From NCBI GenBank assembly GCA_944392815.1, contig CALXXY010000004.1:1-23063 (forward strand): a DNA stretch of 23,063 bases, in the 5' to 3' direction. Source of the stretch: an uncultured Alphaproteobacteria bacterium. Lineage in GTDB: Bacteria; Pseudomonadota; Alphaproteobacteria; Rs-D84. A program made the position numbers and the translations under genes. Positions 7,474 to 23,063 of the stretch are shown in pieces. A model generated the notes under the pieces. The model saw only the letters and a list, made by a program, of their open reading frames with translations, was not told where the DNA came from and made no database searches. Positions within the stretch are counted from its first letter, which is position 1. Every line of letters begins with the position of its first letter.

Positions 7474-7499
7474 AAATGGGACCCGTGGGTCCCATTTTT
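7472..7499. terminator. Bidirectional terminator shared by pgk and Cys-rich paralog 1
   Basis: aaaatgggaccc-gt-gggtcccatttt, abutting both stop codons. Confidence 0.85.
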
Positions 7500-8157
7500 A
7501 TCTGAAGTAGCATGCGCTCTCCTGGGTGTATTCAAATGTGCCGGTGTTGTCAAGACCACCCGTACCTTGGATATAACACCCTTTTAGCGAGGCCGCGTAT
7601 GGGTTTGAATATACCAACATGTATGGGCCGGCGCTATTTTGTGAACCCATGCAATCTTCGCCCATGCCGGCTGTGCCGGTGCAGGGGCAGCATTCACAAA
7701 CATCATAGCACGATTCTGAATTACAGGTCTCGGTTAGGTATCCAGCGTATCCGGGCTTGTTGTCGCTGTTGCAGATTGTGCCACTAGCTCTTACGCCGGT
7801 TTCGTTGGTGCAGGTATCACATGGTCGGTATGTTGCGGCACATTCTACGCGTTGGCCACAGGCGCCACCAGCGACAGTTTGCCAGGTGCCGGTGGTGGTG
7901 GCTTCGTACATGACGAAACATGTACAAGTGCGGATGGTTGGAGTATAACTGGCGTGCCAACTTTCAGCCCCAGCCCAATATAGGCTGCATATGCTGGTGC
8001 ACTCTGACGGGTTGTTGGCCAAATAGCGCTCCGTGGCGTAAAAATTATGTCTAAATGTGCATGTGTCGGCATATGCAGATATTCCGTTTATTGCATACAC
8101 CAAATTCGACACGATTGCCGCCGCAATCATGTATATGAAATTATTTAATTTTTGCAT
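7498..8157 (-). CDS. Secreted Cys-rich variable protein, paralog 1 (219 aa)
   Basis: Start MQKLNNFIYMIAAAIVSNLVYAINGISAYA after a GGGGG RBS. It has 19 Cys by my count and is colinear with 17179-17898. Confidence 0.85.
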   Translation of the reverse strand: MQKLNNFIYMIAAAIVSNLVYAINGISAYADTCTFRHNFYATERYLANNPSECTSICSLYWAGAESWHASYTPTIRTCTCFVMYEATTTGTWQTVAGGACGQRVECAATYRPCDTCTNETGVRASGTICNSDNKPGYAGYLTETCNSESCYDVCECCPCTGTAGMGEDCMGSQNSAGPYMLVYSNPYAASLKGCYIQGTGGLDNTGTFEYTQESACYFR

Positions 8158-8172
8158 TTTATCCCCCAAATT

Positions 8173-8290
8173 GTGCCGAATGCAAACGGTGGATAAAAAA
8201 CGGCAAAAATGCCGTTGACAAAGTGCCGGATTCTGGGGTAAAATACACGCAAGTAAATGCCGAAAATAAAACACCGTTTATATTCGGTAC
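8173..8290 (+). promoter_or_regulatory. Candidate invertible promoter/terminator element, copy 1
   Basis: IR gtgccgaatgcaaacggtgg (8173-8192) and acaccgtttatattcggtac (8271-8290, 16/20 match). TTGACA 8215-8220, N18, TAAAAT 8239-8244 on the + strand. Minus-strand terminator hairpin 8199-8216 with a U-run. Confidence 0.7.
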
Positions 8291-8300
8291 ACTGGGGAAT

Positions 8301-8328
8301 AAAAAAATCCCAGATTTCTGGGGATTTT
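8301..8328. terminator. Terminator-like hairpin between repeat sites B and C
   Basis: aaaaaaatcccag-attt-ctggggatttt: 7 U on the minus strand, only 4 U on the plus strand. Homologous to 18043-18071. Confidence 0.65.
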
Positions 8329-8341
8329 GCAAAAAAAGAAA

Positions 8342-8362
8342 TGCCGAATGCAAACGGTGGAT
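8342..8362 (+). repeat. Third copy of the repeat site (site C)
   Basis: tgccgaatgcaaacggtggat, a perfect 21-bp direct repeat of 8174-8194. Confidence 0.9.
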
Positions 8363-8383
8363 TGGTATCGGCGGGGGGGAACC

Positions 8384-9181
8384 ATGAATAAAATTAATAA
8401 TTTTATGTATATGATTGCGGCAGTGTTTGTGTCGAATCTGGTGTATTTTTTTGGCAATACTGTTGCGCATGCATGGTTCGTAGCAAGTTCGTGCACATAC
8501 GCGTTTTTCCAAACTCGTTCTGTTGGGTCGACTTATTATATTTATGATCGATCCGCTTGCGATTCGTATTGTGATAAGATGTATGGAATTGGTGCCACTG
8601 GCAGATTGAATGTACCCAGTTGTTATTGCTCGACAACTACGGTTGCCACCGGACGTGGGATTTGGGAGTTCGTTGGTATTCCATACGGCACTCGTCTGGA
8701 ATGCGAGGTTGAATATAAACGTAATGCAGATGCCGCAACATTTGCAACGGAAACAATGTATGGTACTGTAAGTTGTGCTGTCGACGCGTACACAGGCAGT
8801 TCCACCGCCATGGCATTTGACGTGAACAAGGGTACATATGATAAAATTATCAGTTCGTGTATAGGGTGCCCCTGTGCCGGTGGCCAGCCCATGTATGAAA
8901 GTTGTTTGGGGTCGCAAAACAGTGCGCCAGGTTCATACATGATGCGTGTCAGCGCAAATCGTGGGGCAACATCTGCGGCCGGTTGTTATGTTGTGGGCAA
9001 TGCATATGACCCCACCGGCCTGTACGAATACACCGACACAGACAAATGTTATTATAAAACTGACACGGGTTTGGTGCCTGGACCTGGAATTACGGTGGGA
9101 CCTGGAATTCCGGTGGGACCAGGAACTGGAACTCCGGGGGGACCGGGTGGTGTCGAGATTGCAAGCTCAATCGTTCCATAA
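8384..9181 (+). CDS. Secreted Cys-rich variable protein, paralog 2 (265 aa, Gly/Pro-rich tail)
   Basis: MNKINNFMYMIAAVFVSNLVY matches the leader of paralogs 1 and 3, and it shares CPC...ESCLGSQNSA...GCY...DPTGLYEYT...CYY. A poly-G RBS lies upstream. Confidence 0.87.
   Translation: MNKINNFMYMIAAVFVSNLVYFFGNTVAHAWFVASSCTYAFFQTRSVGSTYYIYDRSACDSYCDKMYGIGATGRLNVPSCYCSTTTVATGRGIWEFVGIPYGTRLECEVEYKRNADAATFATETMYGTVSCAVDAYTGSSTAMAFDVNKGTYDKIISSCIGCPCAGGQPMYESCLGSQNSAPGSYMMRVSANRGATSAAGCYVVGNAYDPTGLYEYTDTDKCYYKTDTGLVPGPGITVGPGIPVGPGTGTPGGPGGVEIASSIVP
9080..9133 (+). repeat. In-frame 18-bp tandem repeat (GPGITV/GPGIPV/GPGTGT)
   Basis: ggacctggaattacggtg ggacctggaattccggtg ggaccaggaactggaact. Confidence 0.85.
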
Positions 9182-9207
9182 AAAACGGGGCATTGCCCCG
9201 TTTTTTT
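9180..9207. terminator. Intrinsic terminator after paralog 2
   Basis: aaaaacggggca-t-tgccccgttttttt. Confidence 0.85.
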
Positions 9208-9796
9208 AATGACCACCCCGCCGGCATAGCCGGCACCCCTCCGCAGAGGGGAACTTGGCCTTCGTCCCGTCGCGGAACCAGTTCCCCTCCATTGGAGGGG
9301 TGGGCGCAGCCCGGGGTGGTTAGAGATTACAAGAAAGCGCACTTACTCCCCATAACCTGTCATTCCCGCGCCCGGGGCCCAGCACAACAAACACTCTGTC
9401 ATTCCCGCGCAGGCGGGAATAGGGCTGTGGTTGTTAATTAGTTATTTAATTTTGGGAATAATTCTGTGTTGCATTTTTATTTGTCTGAAACCCGCGATAC
9501 GAATTTAATGGACCCTATTCCCGCCTTGTCCACCCCACAAATACATTAGTATTTGCGGGGGCCCCGGGCGCGGGAATGACAGGGGAGAGAGTGCACGAGC
9601 AATAACCAAGCGGAATGCCCACCGCCACACCGGGCCCCGCGCAAACATAGTTTGCGTGGGTGGTTCTGGGGCGGGGGGTGCGGTCGTCAGACCGTCGGGG
9701 GGTGGGGTGCAATGACCACCCCGCCGGCTTATCACCCACGAAAATTGCATTTTCGCGGGGCCCGAAGCGCCGGCACCCCTCCGCAGAGGGGAACTT
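9208..9796. repeat. Mosaic of REP-like palindromic elements (BIME/REPIN-like)
   Basis: ACCACCCCG..CACCCCTCC..GAGGGGAA units at 9208-9256, 9280-9321 (reverse) and 9711-9796. GTCATTCCCGCG..GCGGGAAT units at 9358-9380, 9397-9424 and 9513-9581 (reverse). GGGCCC..CACCC hairpins at 9530-9567, 9632-9663 and 9733-9763. Confidence 0.85.
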
Positions 9797-9811
9797 TGCC
9801 CCGTGTGTGGT

Positions 9812-17178: not shown

Positions 17179-17898
17179 TCAGGGTTTAACAGGAATGCTG
17201 GGGGCAGATGGTAATAATGTATCACTCCAATGGCATTCATTTCCCTGGGTGTATTCAAATACGCCGGTTTTGTCAAAACCACCCGTACCTTGGATATAAC
17301 ACCCTTTTATCGAGTGCGCGTATGGGTCTGAATATACCAACATGTATGGGCCGGCGCCATTTTGTGAACCCATGCAACTTTCGCCCATGCCCTGGCTTCC
17401 GGTGCAGGGGCAGCATGTACAAAAATATGAGCACGATACATTTCCACTGTATGTAATACAGGAACTGGTTTGGTATCCAGCGTATCCGGGGATGTCGTCG
17501 CTGTTGCAGAGTGCGGCACCGGTAGATACGGTGCTGCGTTTGGCGCAGGTATCACATGTTTGGTATGTTATGGCGCACTCATTGCGTCGGCCACAGCCGC
17601 CATATGCGACATATTGCCAGGTGGCGGTGGCGGTGTTTCTGTTTGTGACCATGCATGTGCAACTGCGGTTGGTTGAATTATAAACGGCGCGCCAACTTTG
17701 ACCCATACCGTTCCACATTCTGCTGCATACGCTGCTGCACCCTGACAGGTTGTTGGCCTGGCCACGGCGATCCGTGACGTACGAGTTATATGTATATGTG
17801 CATGTGGCGGCATATGCAGATATTCCGTTTATTGCATACACCAAATTCGACACGATTGCCGCCGCAATCATGTATATGAAATTATTTAATTTTTGCAT
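17179..17898 (-). CDS. Secreted Cys-rich variable protein, paralog 3 (239 aa, short Pro-rich tail)
   Basis: First 30 aa identical to paralog 1, same 19-Cys skeleton, conserved C-terminal block. Confidence 0.87.
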   Translation of the reverse strand: MQKLNNFIYMIAAAIVSNLVYAINGISAYAATCTYTYNSYVTDRRGQANNLSGCSSVCSRMWNGMGQSWRAVYNSTNRSCTCMVTNRNTATATWQYVAYGGCGRRNECAITYQTCDTCAKRSTVSTGAALCNSDDIPGYAGYQTSSCITYSGNVSCSYFCTCCPCTGSQGMGESCMGSQNGAGPYMLVYSDPYAHSIKGCYIQGTGGFDKTGVFEYTQGNECHWSDTLLPSAPSIPVKP

Positions 17899-17913: not shown

Positions 17914-18031
17914 GTGCCGAATGCAAATGGTGGATAAAAAACGGCAGAAATGCCGTTGACAAAGTGCCGGATTCTGGTGTAAACTACGCACAAACAAATG
18001 CCGAAAATAAACCACCGTTTGCATTCGGCAC
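17914..18031 (+). promoter_or_regulatory. Candidate invertible promoter/terminator element, copy 2
   Basis: IR gtgccgaatgcaaatggtgg (17914-17933) and ccaccgtttgcattcggcac (18012-18031), 19/20 match. TTGACA 17956-17961, N18, TAAACT 17980-17985. Minus-strand terminator at 17935-17957. Confidence 0.75.
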
Positions 18032-20859: not shown

Positions 20860-21396
20860 TTAAAATACATAGCGTAATTTCAGGCGCGCTTCGTATTGCA
20901 GAAAATCTGGTTTTAATCCATGATAATCGTAAATGTCCGCTGCGTACAGGACGCGACCTTCGACATCGACATCAATTGGCAACACAGGTATATCAAATGT
21001 GACACCCAACATCGCCTGGTACGCGGCGACGGAATCGATATCCATAAAATCTTCGTCGGTGCCGCTGAAAACATTACCGATGCCGACGCCCAGATACGGT
21101 TTTACCGCGGGCAGGGGCATTTTTGCATATGCGTTTATCATGCCGACGTGCATTTCAATAGGGGCCGCGTGCATATAGTCATATTCCAATTCAAAACGAA
21201 ATACAGGTATATCAAATCCGATAACGGCGCCATATGATTGTGCAGATTTGCTGACATCCATATCGTTGGCGAATACGGTTGCGCCACCAACACCAACCAT
21301 GGCGCCCGCGTAAAAATCAAATAACGACGCAGCGTTTGCCGAACCAGAAACTGTTAATGCCGCGGCTGTTAAAATCCCCAGATAATTTAATTTCAT
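20860..21396 (-). CDS. Small outer-membrane beta-barrel protein (OmpA/Opa-like, probably 8-stranded)
   Basis: Signal peptide ending ANA, alternating amphipathic strands, PYLGVGIG, C-terminal LKLRYVF beta-signal. Confidence 0.82.
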   Translation of the reverse strand: MKLNYLGILTAAALTVSGSANAASLFDFYAGAMVGVGGATVFANDMDVSKSAQSYGAVIGFDIPVFRFELEYDYMHAAPIEMHVGMINAYAKMPLPAVKPYLGVGIGNVFSGTDEDFMDIDSVAAYQAMLGVTFDIPVLPIDVDVEGRVLYAADIYDYHGLKPDFLQYEARLKLRYVF

Positions 21397-21983: not shown

Positions 21984-23063
21984 TTAGTTGCCGGCCACCT
22001 TGGCGTGCGGAACATGTCCCGACCCAGGCAGGTAAAAACAATCACCGGTGTTGTCACAAAATTTGGTGCCACCGTCGCCCCGCACCATATAACAATTGGT
22101 GGTGGAACCGGCGCCAGGGTCACTGGTGGTGCCGGCGGGACAATTGTACGTTTTGCCATTTGTGCAATAATGTCCCGCAGGGCAGGCGTCATATTGTGCA
22201 ACAAAATAACGTGTTTTTTCAGCGTCGGTTTCTGGTGGTGCGATTTGGTCGCCGGGTGTGTAAAACGGTTTAGTGCATGAATTGGAAAATTCTTCGTTGG
22301 TATAGCATTTATATCTAGTGAAAAGTTTACCCATTGGGGGGGCATCCCATTGATATTCCTGAGTTTTACAAGTGCTACCGGAATAATCTTTATCCTCACC
22401 ACAGGTTTGTGTTATCTGACTACCGCCAGCATCATCGTAATAATAGTAGATGTGGTATGGTGAAAATGACCAGCCAGCCCAGAGTGTTATCTCGTTGTCC
22501 TTATTGGCTAGCTTAGCCAAATCTGCCTGCGGTTTAGTTAAGGCACCATTGCTACTGAAATATTGGTCGCGTTCCTCCCATACAAGATCGCCCTTGTTGT
22601 CAAAATACCCTACGAATGTTTGTACTGGTTTGTTATCTTGTAATGCGGATGCCGGAAGGGTTGTTTTGTTCCATGGTCCTGTGCTATTTGCTGAAAAACC
22701 GGTGTCGTATTTAAAGTATGCCGTTTTGTCGTCTGTTATTATCGAATTACGTTTAAGAGTTAACTTATACACTTTTCCATCACAGCGGTCGGATTTTTCG
22801 TAGCCATCGATGCTGGTGGTGGCGGCGGCGGGGCCATAGCCGGTTATCGTAAATTCGCCACCCTTGGCGGTATAGTAATCCCCACATGGCTGGCATGTTA
22901 AATTTTTGGTGCTTGCTACGTACTCGCCAGATTTGCAGTATGCCGTCCAGCCGCAGTTATCTGAGGTTAAGCCCGTTTGGTCGAGATTGGGTGTTGCTCC
23001 TTCGGGGATTGTGCATGCGGTGCATTCATCTGCGCCAAGCGTATCATTATAATAACCGGGTTG
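21984..23063 (-). CDS. Large Cys-rich repeat surface protein, 3' part (starts beyond the right edge)
   Basis: The frame is open from 23063 (QPGYYNDTLGADECTACTIPEG...CKSGEY...CQPC) into ORF 21984..22772. It has CPAGHYC/CPAGTTS (GCC2_GCC3-like) units and InlB-B-repeat-like FVGYF...ITLWAGW segments. Confidence 0.85.
   Translation of the reverse strand, partial: QPGYYNDTLGADECTACTIPEGATPNLDQTGLTSDNCGWTAYCKSGEYVASTKNLTCQPCGDYYTAKGGEFTITGYGPAAATTSIDGYEKSDRCDGKVYKLTLKRNSIITDDKTAYFKYDTGFSANSTGPWNKTTLPASALQDNKPVQTFVGYFDNKGDLVWEERDQYFSSNGALTKPQADLAKLANKDNEITLWAGWSFSPYHIYYYYDDAGGSQITQTCGEDKDYSGSTCKTQEYQWDAPPMGKLFTRYKCYTNEEFSNSCTKPFYTPGDQIAPPETDAEKTRYFVAQYDACPAGHYCTNGKTYNCPAGTTSDPGAGSTTNCYMVRGDGGTKFCDNTGDCFYLPGSGHVPHAKVAGN

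Follow-up and report, generated by a model that had tools for sequence, protein, structure and literature searches.

The window analysed here, a stretch of 23,063 nucleotides, is contig C4:1-23063 of a 927-kb, 18-contig genome (labelled G000) of Candidatus Enterousia, which parts of PMC12306168 describe as an uncultured, genome-reduced alphaproteobacterial group of the order Rs-D84 found in animal guts. Public runs that contain this stretch are mostly labelled chicken-gut metagenomes, and in runs X1-X4 92-94% of the sampled words are present. Among housekeeping genes (pgk, clpX, clpP, clpB and polA) and a DsbA-like gene, two divergent genes, paralogs 1 and 2, are separated by an intergenic region that carries three copies of a short repeat, sites A, B and C, with a promoter between A and B and a terminator-like hairpin between B and C (Table 1). 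This three-site arrangement, which we interpret as a probable two-part DNA inversion switch, is the subject of what follows. Paralogs 1 and 2 and a third gene of the window, paralog 3, encode cysteine-rich proteins with signal-peptide-like N-termini that are 41-64% identical to one another (41% between paralogs 1 and 2, 64% between paralogs 1 and 3); a Pfam search of the three matched no family, and contig C3 encodes a fourth paralog. The Shine-Dalgarno (SD) sequence of paralog 1, GGGGGA, lies on the minus strand at 8162-8167. Paralog 1 found no match in 40 relatives, and no ortholog of the paralog 1/paralog 2 locus was found in the nearest species, the pgk-clpX interval being rearranged in one genome (G052) and the stretch compared in another (G058) giving only a tRNA-Leu-region match.

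Table 1. Features of the three-site locus, related features of the window, and the candidate enzyme
Feature	Position	Strand	Description
Site A	8175-8204	+	arm GCCGAATGCAAA, core CGGTGG (8187-8192), diverged inner arm ATAAAAAACGGC; half-site scores 9 and 5 of 9
Site B	8259-8288	-	inverted relative to A and C; core ACACCG on the + strand; half-site scores 9 and 8 of 9
Site C	8343-8372	+	arm GCCGAATGCAAA, core CGGTGG (8355-8360), arm ATTGGTATCGGC; half-site scores 9 and 7 of 9
Sigma-70-type promoter TTGACA-18-TAAAAT	8215-8244	+	scores 11/12; faces B, hairpin, C and paralog 2
Small hairpin with T run	8199-8216	-	inside A-B, upstream of the -35; 7 pairs, tail TTTTATCCAC
Terminator-like hairpin	8304-8328 (scan stem 8309-8322)		centred on the B-C midpoint, 8315.5
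Paralog 1	7498-8157	-	open reading frame; 219-aa cysteine-rich protein with N-terminal signal-peptide-like stretch
Paralog 2	8384-9181	+	265-aa cysteine-rich secreted-type protein; own SD GGGGGGGA at 8373-8380, own ATG
Paralog 3	17179-17898	-	239 aa; cysteine-rich; third paralog in the window
Paralog 3 module	17916-18029		sites with cores TGGTGG and CCACCG, 84 bp apart
Candidate enzyme	C4:38702-39322		Gin-like small serine recombinase; 206 aa; 15 kb past the window end

The initial annotation of this region had described A and C as perfect direct copies of 21 bp and B as an inverted copy matching at 16 of 20 positions, and both descriptions hold. Positions 8174-8194 equal 8342-8362 over all 21 bp, and on the minus strand 8271-8289 differs at 4 of 19 positions from the 19-mer TGCCGAATGCAAACGGTGG, which puts B beyond the reach of a search allowing up to 3 mismatches. 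That search returned four matches in the window where 0.02 were expected, a number reached in none of 100 shuffles, and the two matches outside the A-B-C region flank the promoter upstream of paralog 3, at 17915-17933 (+) and 18012-18030 (-). The annotated site length of 20 bp, on the other hand, proved too short, since each site is a quasi-palindrome of ~30 bp (about 30-34) built from a 12-bp arm, GCCGAAnnnAAA, a 6-bp core and an inverted 12-bp arm. Comparison with other copies in the genome gives CGGTGG or its complement as the typical core. With the core of B at 8271-8276, the spacing from A to B and from B to C is exactly 84 bp in both cases. The bases that set B apart from A and C (ata rather than tgc) fall in variable nnn positions of the arm, which differ among all copies, and the core of B, read as CGGTGT on the other strand, retains the central GT; the earlier suggestion that two central bases slow or lock this copy is thus not borne out.

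These sites belong to a larger family. A site scan of G000 gave 26 hits against 3 in a reversed-genome control, and the exact 84-bp spacing, supported by site scores, is common to A-B, B-C and five further pairs of this genome, namely those upstream of paralog 3 (17916/18000) and at C1:39288, C1:69249, C1:138386 and C3:106604, with a sixth, C5:268/352, recognised by eye. Counting G000, 15 of 61 genomes of the genus contain a strict site pattern (at most 1 mismatch), and the reversed pattern used as a control gave 0 hits. Across 185,579 species genomes, one per species, the same pattern matched 85 loci; 75 of the 80 listed lie in Enterousia or in gut alpha-/proteobacterial metagenome-assembled genomes (MAGs), and 5 in Clostridia-type or Moorellales MAGs, so the site family hardly occurs outside Candidatus Enterousia and allied gut alphaproteobacterial MAGs. 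(In what follows, G numbers denote genomes of the genus, L numbers the site loci fetched from the species-genome set, and X numbers public runs.) A more general site pattern matched 8 loci in metagenome contigs, 5 with a CGGTGG or CCACCG core and 1 with a partner at 86 bp, which is too few for use.

The spacing between neighbouring sites and the pairing of their cores are both strongly constrained. Among 50 neighbour distances obtained from the 80 fetched loci, 39 are 83-86 bp, 4 are 96-97 bp and 3 are 106-109 bp; the spacing rises in steps of about one helical turn. Partner cores are always opposite in direction and covary, as in CCTCCG/CGGAGG, CGTTGG/CCAACA and CGGCCG/CGGCCG. In 56 non-redundant pairs, core positions 1 to 6 match between partners in 45, 47, 53, 56, 50 and 51 cases, respectively, so that strict agreement is limited to the two bases at the centre. 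The arms vary by genome (GCCGAA, GCCTAA or GCCGCA), and several core classes coexist in some genomes, for example CGGTCC, CGTCGG and CGGAGG in G065; this arm and core variation may point to joint evolution of sites and recombinase and to separate sets of switches that do not cross-react.

What a unit contains follows the polarity of its sites, as a comparison based on the 56 site pairs shows. Head-to-head pairs (CGGTGG...CCACCG) enclose a promoter scoring at least 10/12, on either strand and at a fixed offset, in 23 of 26 cases, a score reached by 49 of 5000 random 54-mers, whereas none of the 21 tail-to-tail pairs (CCACCG...CGGTGG) encloses such a promoter. The tail-to-tail interiors instead have a central motif like cccagaWWtctggg, preceded by a run of A and followed by a run of T. 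Six of the 21 have an SD and ATG at a fixed position within the interior, and the others have no start there; in L082 and L099 the frame so opened continues through the site into a signal-peptide open reading frame, and in the other four the start faces a short frame. In the window, L048 and L072, the centre of the tail-to-tail unit is a perfect hairpin and the gene past the site has its own SD and ATG.

Unit A-B is of the head-to-head kind. It consists of inverted 30-bp repeats flanking a short segment, with a promoter inside at the same fixed offset as in other head-to-head modules, the SD and ATG of paralog 1 following 17-30 nt past site A, and site-specific recombinase genes present in the genome. 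The promoter that had been placed in A-B, facing paralog 2, was recovered with a high score (Table 1), and we consider it very probable that A-B is an invertible promoter belonging to a clade-wide family. The minus-strand hairpin with its T run just upstream of this promoter recurs upstream of paralog 3 and of the paralog on contig C3; a possible role is to keep transcription from running on into paralog 1 in the OFF state. The promoter of the paralog 3 module, TTGACA-18-TAAACT, faces away from paralog 3, toward the polA terminator. In this assembly each of the three promoter units, that of paralog 1, that of paralog 3 and that of the paralog on contig C3, is directed away from its gene. These orientations agree with the state predicted earlier, in which paralog 2 is the one served and the other two paralogs of the window are off.

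Two other units of the same genome lie outside the window. The promoter unit at C1:39288-39401 stands in the ON orientation before a gene for a 329-aa protein that is not cysteine-rich, the ATG of which overlaps the outer site arm, and the unit may be locked because its partner cores, GGAACC and GGTCAG, are unmatched at the centre. At C9:6665-6694 a solo full site lies beside the start of a 624-aa secreted-type gene, which a promoter-like sequence (TTGATT-18-TACAAT, by eye) faces; there is no partner at 84 bp, and the whole has the appearance of a unit left fixed ON by the loss of one of its sites.

Unit B-C is tail-to-tail, and its hairpin is asymmetric in the way the initial annotation had stated. 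A terminator scan passes the hairpin on the minus strand only, where the tail is ATTTTTTTAT and 7 U follow the stem; the tail on the + strand is GAUUUUGC, with 4 U, and the folding energies in the two directions are near equal (-9.7 and -9.2 kcal/mol). The unit lies between the promoter at 8215-8244 and the SD and ATG of paralog 2 (8373-8386) and holds neither, an arrangement of the cwpV type. No promoter for paralog 2 was found between B and its ATG, the best score within B-C being 7/12, and no SD with ATG occurs in B-C; the promoter scan found no promoter for paralog 2 other than the one in A-B. A sigma-54 reading of the B-C motif was dropped by eye, the GG-GC spacing being unsuitable.

The closest counterpart of the whole array is L048, from another species, where divergent genes with similar signal peptides enclose a site, a promoter (TTGACG-18-TAAAAT, 10/12, facing right), an inverted site, a hairpin and a further site, followed by an SD and ATG. 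The A-B interiors of L048 and the window align better directly (53 vs 42 of 78 positions), whereas the B-C interiors align better as reverse complements (61 vs 51 of 78; 42 vs 32 for the inner part), and the promoter meets a hairpin side with six U in L048 and with four U in the window, the U tracts being 6 and 4 in the one and 4 and 7 in the other, in opposite orientation. By this comparison, which is good but not conclusive, L048 appears to carry B-C flipped relative to the window. L072 has a promoter-like sequence outside the unit (9/12, by eye), then a perfect hairpin between two sites, and beyond it a gene that brings its own start. The nearest species examined, G058, has a cysteine-rich gene that is read, through a tail-to-tail unit, from a promoter lying outside that unit; here the third site is decayed. 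A site-hairpin-site pattern sought in 101 genomes matched only the window and one decayed locus in G042, the second site of which has a 3-bp core; a triple-site pattern gave 0 matches in 201 genomes of the genus, a result without weight because the pattern was too strict to fit the window itself (B core ACACCG). Taken together with the full pair of sites at 84 bp, these comparisons make it reasonably likely that B-C is an invertible terminator unit.

Direct traces of inversion come from sister units. In G000, the flanks of C1:69249 and C1:138386 match at 117 of 120 and 104 of 120 positions, and the interior matches at 54 of 84 positions directly and at 80 of 84 as the reverse complement, with the change-over inside the cores. 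A second case was seen by eye in another MAG, where L047 and L074 have conserved flanks and an inverted interior. From these alignments, both orientations evidently occur in nature for sister units. Assemblies also break at the sites: a site lies within 62 nt of a contig end in 13 of 80 loci and within 400 nt in 21 of 80, which is the effect on assembly expected of flipping within a sampled population. At the locus itself, public runs were compared as assembled contigs, and our statements cover the contig pieces listed. In run X1 one contig breaks off at 8191, on the fifth base of core A. In run X5 one contig stops fitting at 8272, with one more unlike letter at 8271, where core B begins, and another has its start at 18012, where the distal core upstream of paralog 3 begins. 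These positions are where an assembly graph would be expected to branch if both orientations were present, and they hint at flipping at this locus. A pattern for the flipped junction at site A gave 0 matches in metagenome contigs, as did the native form, so the strain is absent from that collection and the search carries no evidence either way.

Which enzyme might act on these sites can be approached through the recombinase genes of the genome. These comprise six Resolvase matches, five of them above the Pfam cut-off, and four Phage_integrase matches, of which two are Xer-like (~300 aa) and two integrase-like. The candidate listed in Table 1 has the architecture of a serine invertase, with an N-terminal resolvase domain (PF00239, 4e-32) carrying the catalytic serine motif YIRVSTDHQ and a C-terminal helix-turn-helix at 163-193, and its best solved relatives are Gin invertase structures (4m6f, E 9e-15). 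Of the 14 other site-bearing genomes of the genus, 13 have an ortholog with at least 74% identity. Orthologs also occur in 9 of 46 genus genomes without the strict site, and four of these nine carry variant sites with GCCTAA- or GCCGCA-type arms (23 vs 2, 13 vs 1, 7 vs 0 and 6 vs 1 in the control). Five genomes that lack an ortholog are at or near control level, G002 having 2 matches vs 0, neither of them site-like. Agreement at the two central core positions (53 and 56 of 56 pairs), set beside differences at the outer ones in 5-11 pairs, is compatible with a 2-bp crossover centre, and matching demanded at two central positions only would suit a serine recombinase better than a tyrosine recombinase. 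Going by this co-distribution, we judge the odds to be somewhat better than even that the 206-aa protein is the enzyme. A partial serine recombinase at the end of contig C6 was set aside as master enzyme after a search at E 1e-10 failed to detect it in five site-rich genomes, as was a 332-aa integrase-like protein, which occurs in all genus genomes with or without sites and has no catalytic-domain match.

If A, B and C are crossover sites of a site-specific inversion system that runs many small Enterousia switches, then the non-palindromic central GT would give each site its direction, and two adjacent sites of opposite direction, 84 bp or eight helical turns apart, would constitute one invertible unit. 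In the assembled state, the promoter of A-B points at paralog 2; once flipped, it would point at paralog 1, the SD and ATG of which follow site A. With B-C as assembled, the transcript would meet the weak side of the hairpin (4 U) and paralog 2 would probably be expressed; with B-C flipped, the side met would be the strong one (7 U), leaving both paralogs off. A-B and B-C together would then make a toggle between two surface-protein paralogs with an additional setting, off or dim, and the 206-aa serine recombinase would act in trans on all units, including the separate promoter units that paralog 3 and the contig C3 paralog have, both off in this assembly. We give this combined toggle-plus-dimmer reading, which is built from genome comparison, a probability of roughly 0.7. 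Its two component reactions had both been proposed in the initial annotation: inversion between A and B finds support at the level of the family, where sister units are inverted and both promoter orientations are represented in the 23 of 26 promoter-bearing pairs, as does inversion of the terminator between B and C, through the full site pair at 84 bp, the flipped state in L048 and the arrangement in L072, and for neither was a rearranged allele seen here. The third reaction then envisaged, deletion between A and C, would be disfavoured if the enzyme acts only on opposite sites one unit apart, as the strict spacing suggests.

Several observations weigh against this reading. None of the public contig pieces listed has a flipped A-B or B-C form of this locus, and one X1 contig crosses site B unbroken (8250-9237), which argues against much heterogeneity at B in that sample. 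None of the public runs with the locus is on record as RNA. The inner arm of site A is weak, the strength of the terminator was judged from U counts, with hairpin energies the same both ways, and the difference in B-C orientation comes mainly from one other species, L048; moreover, a hairpin with A and T runs is to some extent its own reverse complement, and the loop of 4 nt has the same reading in the window and L048. For the enzyme, co-occurrence with the sites follows phylogeny and is not independent evidence, and one site-bearing genome, G056 (92% complete), has no ortholog at E 1e-10.

Part of this evidence could also be accommodated if only A-B works. Site C and B-C would then be the relic of a decayed leader cassette, the hairpin a fixed insulating terminator acting in both directions, and paralog 2 either silent or transcribed from an unrecognised promoter. 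The equal energy of the B-C hairpin in the two directions agrees with this, and there are two-site modules, those of paralog 3 and the contig C3 paralog, with the same hairpin by the distal site and no third site; six sister tail-to-tail segments have an SD and ATG where the window has ATC, which looks like decay, and decayed sites are common in the family, as at the G058 and G042 loci. We nevertheless regard a relic as unlikely, because site C retains both arms, an exact core and the exact 84-bp phase, because L048 keeps a three-site array with B-C in the other orientation and L072 places its flanked perfect hairpin between an outside promoter-like sequence and a gene with its own start, and because no other promoter for paralog 2 was found. 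That nothing moves at all, the sites being regulator operators or REP-like palindromic repeats (after repetitive extragenic palindromes) in a static arrangement, is highly improbable. Quasi-palindromic sites beside promoters, in a genome rich in other palindromic intergenic repeats, are what such an explanation has to offer, and it would have to account for interiors inverted between near-identical flanks with breakpoints within the cores, for partner cores that covary, for assemblies that break at the sites and for promoters in both orientations at a fixed offset.

Inversion could also be real and the chemistry different. A layout of arm, 6-bp centre and arm is known for the core sites of tyrosine recombinases, and the 12-6-12 sites described here, which could be called dif- or lox-like, have this layout; the genome also has its four Phage_integrase-domain genes, the two Xer-like ones among them. 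A tyrosine recombinase, Xer-like or integrase, as the agent of these inversions seems rather unlikely to us all the same. Core positions 1, 2, 5 and 6 differ between partners in 11, 9, 6 and 5 of 56 pairs, which suits a 2-bp over a 6-bp overlap, the Xer-like genes, like the 332-aa protein, are found in all genomes of the genus with or without sites, and it is the Gin-like enzyme that tracks them.

Returning to serine-type inversion, a more far-reaching version of the toggle-plus-dimmer reading can be put forward as a tentative idea. One master serine invertase might act only on site pairs exactly eight, or rarely nine or ten, helical turns apart, with the central dyad motif cccagaWWtctggg serving as a built-in bending or accessory site. 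Such geometry would let dozens of identical sites coexist without scrambling a 0.9-Mb genome, and 84-bp cartridges containing a promoter, a terminator or an SD with ATG could be chained into multi-state switches, which would be the smallest natural invertible segments known.

Several known systems share parts of this organisation. The initial annotation had called the locus shufflon-like, which survives as a loose analogy: in Rci-type shufflons, the tyrosine recombinase Rci shuffles alternative 3' exons of one gene via sites in coding DNA, whereas A, B and C are intergenic, no coding exon is exchanged and no recombinase gene adjoins them. The resemblance to Hin, Gin and Cin is closer, both through the Gin structures that are the best solved relatives of the candidate enzyme and through the sites, since hix and gix sites are likewise dyads with A/T-rich arms and a 2-bp centre that gives direction. 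Those invertases act on segments of ~1-3 kb, need a Fis-bound enhancer and are encoded beside or inside the segment; here, by contrast, the segment is 84 bp and the recombinase gene 30 kb away, and an accessory site, if there is one, would have to coincide with the motif at the centre of the 84-bp segment itself.

Among systems that regulate surface features, Mpi of Bacteroides is a serine recombinase encoded elsewhere that flips 7 to 13 promoter loci and the deletion of which locks the state, according to passages of PMC10403206. As described there for Bacteroides fragilis, one small serine recombinase, many promoter segments genome-wide, life in the gut and surface diversity make up a set of features that the Enterousia system would share. 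The differences are the 84 bp between crossover points, the 30-bp dyad site and strict helical phasing, the small cysteine-rich secreted proteins of a 0.9-Mb alphaproteobacterium in place of polysaccharide operons with invertible capsule promoters, the chaining of units in tandem with terminator or start-codon units, and an enzyme that is here a candidate. In Mycoplasma penetrans, each surface-protein gene of the mpl (P35) family has an adjacent invertible promoter, and the open reading frames MYPE2900 and MYPE8180 are candidate recombinases (both from parts of PMC2268961, the former citing Horino et al. 2003). This is again, on that partial account, a tiny-genome, host-associated bacterium with per-gene invertible promoters. 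We take MYPE2900 and MYPE8180 to be tyrosine recombinases. The site type differs from the Enterousia one, and the passages of PMC2268961 on mpl describe no tandem terminator or leader unit.

The nearest precedent for B-C is cwpV of Clostridioides difficile, where, in the relevant parts of PMC2784873, RecV flips a 195-bp segment devoid of both promoter and coding sequence; the promoter is external, and in one of the two orientations an intrinsic terminator arises in the transcript. B-C likewise holds neither promoter nor coding sequence and would act through termination. As those parts present it, the cwpV terminator forms from the switch together with flanking sequence, whereas in B-C a ready-made hairpin with unequal U tracts would flip, and B-C adjoins, in tandem, a probable invertible promoter unit. 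Inversion of promoters, and in one case of a terminator, is already known; the Enterousia system differs by its 84-bp units with a fixed helical phase, by the chaining of promoter and terminator units between two genes, and by its spread across a clade. We found no published account of DNA inversion, phase variation included, in Candidatus Enterousia or Rs-D84 in main texts, as distinct from supplements.

The surroundings of the locus contain further features of note. The DsbA-like thiol-disulfide oxidoreductase (1279-2112, +), which has an N-terminal membrane anchor, suits a cell exporting many cysteine-rich proteins. Another large cysteine-rich protein, with CxxC-rich repeats and no Pfam match, is encoded at 21984-23063 (-), running past the window end, and is adjoined by an OmpA-like beta-barrel gene (20860-21396). 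Downstream of paralog 2, the stretch 9200-9800 is a block of G+C-rich nested palindromic repeats that includes a perfect 25-nt inverted repeat (9356-9380 / 9559-9583) and direct repeats ~500-540 bp apart, and its summed contig depth is very high in all four runs. One public contig (run X8, record 26) fuses coding parts of paralogs 1 and 3, joining 7909-8020 to 17473-17642, which suggests gene conversion or recombination between these paralogs in other strains.

For recombination itself, sites only 54 bp apart edge to edge offer a natural test case for recombinase synapsis, and assembly breaks caused by the switches matter for the reconstruction of MAGs in this group. The wider interest lies in the clade, a group of uncultured, genome-reduced gut alphaproteobacteria of whose biology almost nothing is known. 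The switches suggest that, like mycoplasmas and Bacteroides, these bacteria vary a family of cysteine-rich proteins, secreted or on the surface, one by one, and variation of this kind would imply strong pressure from the host, from phages or from partner cells.

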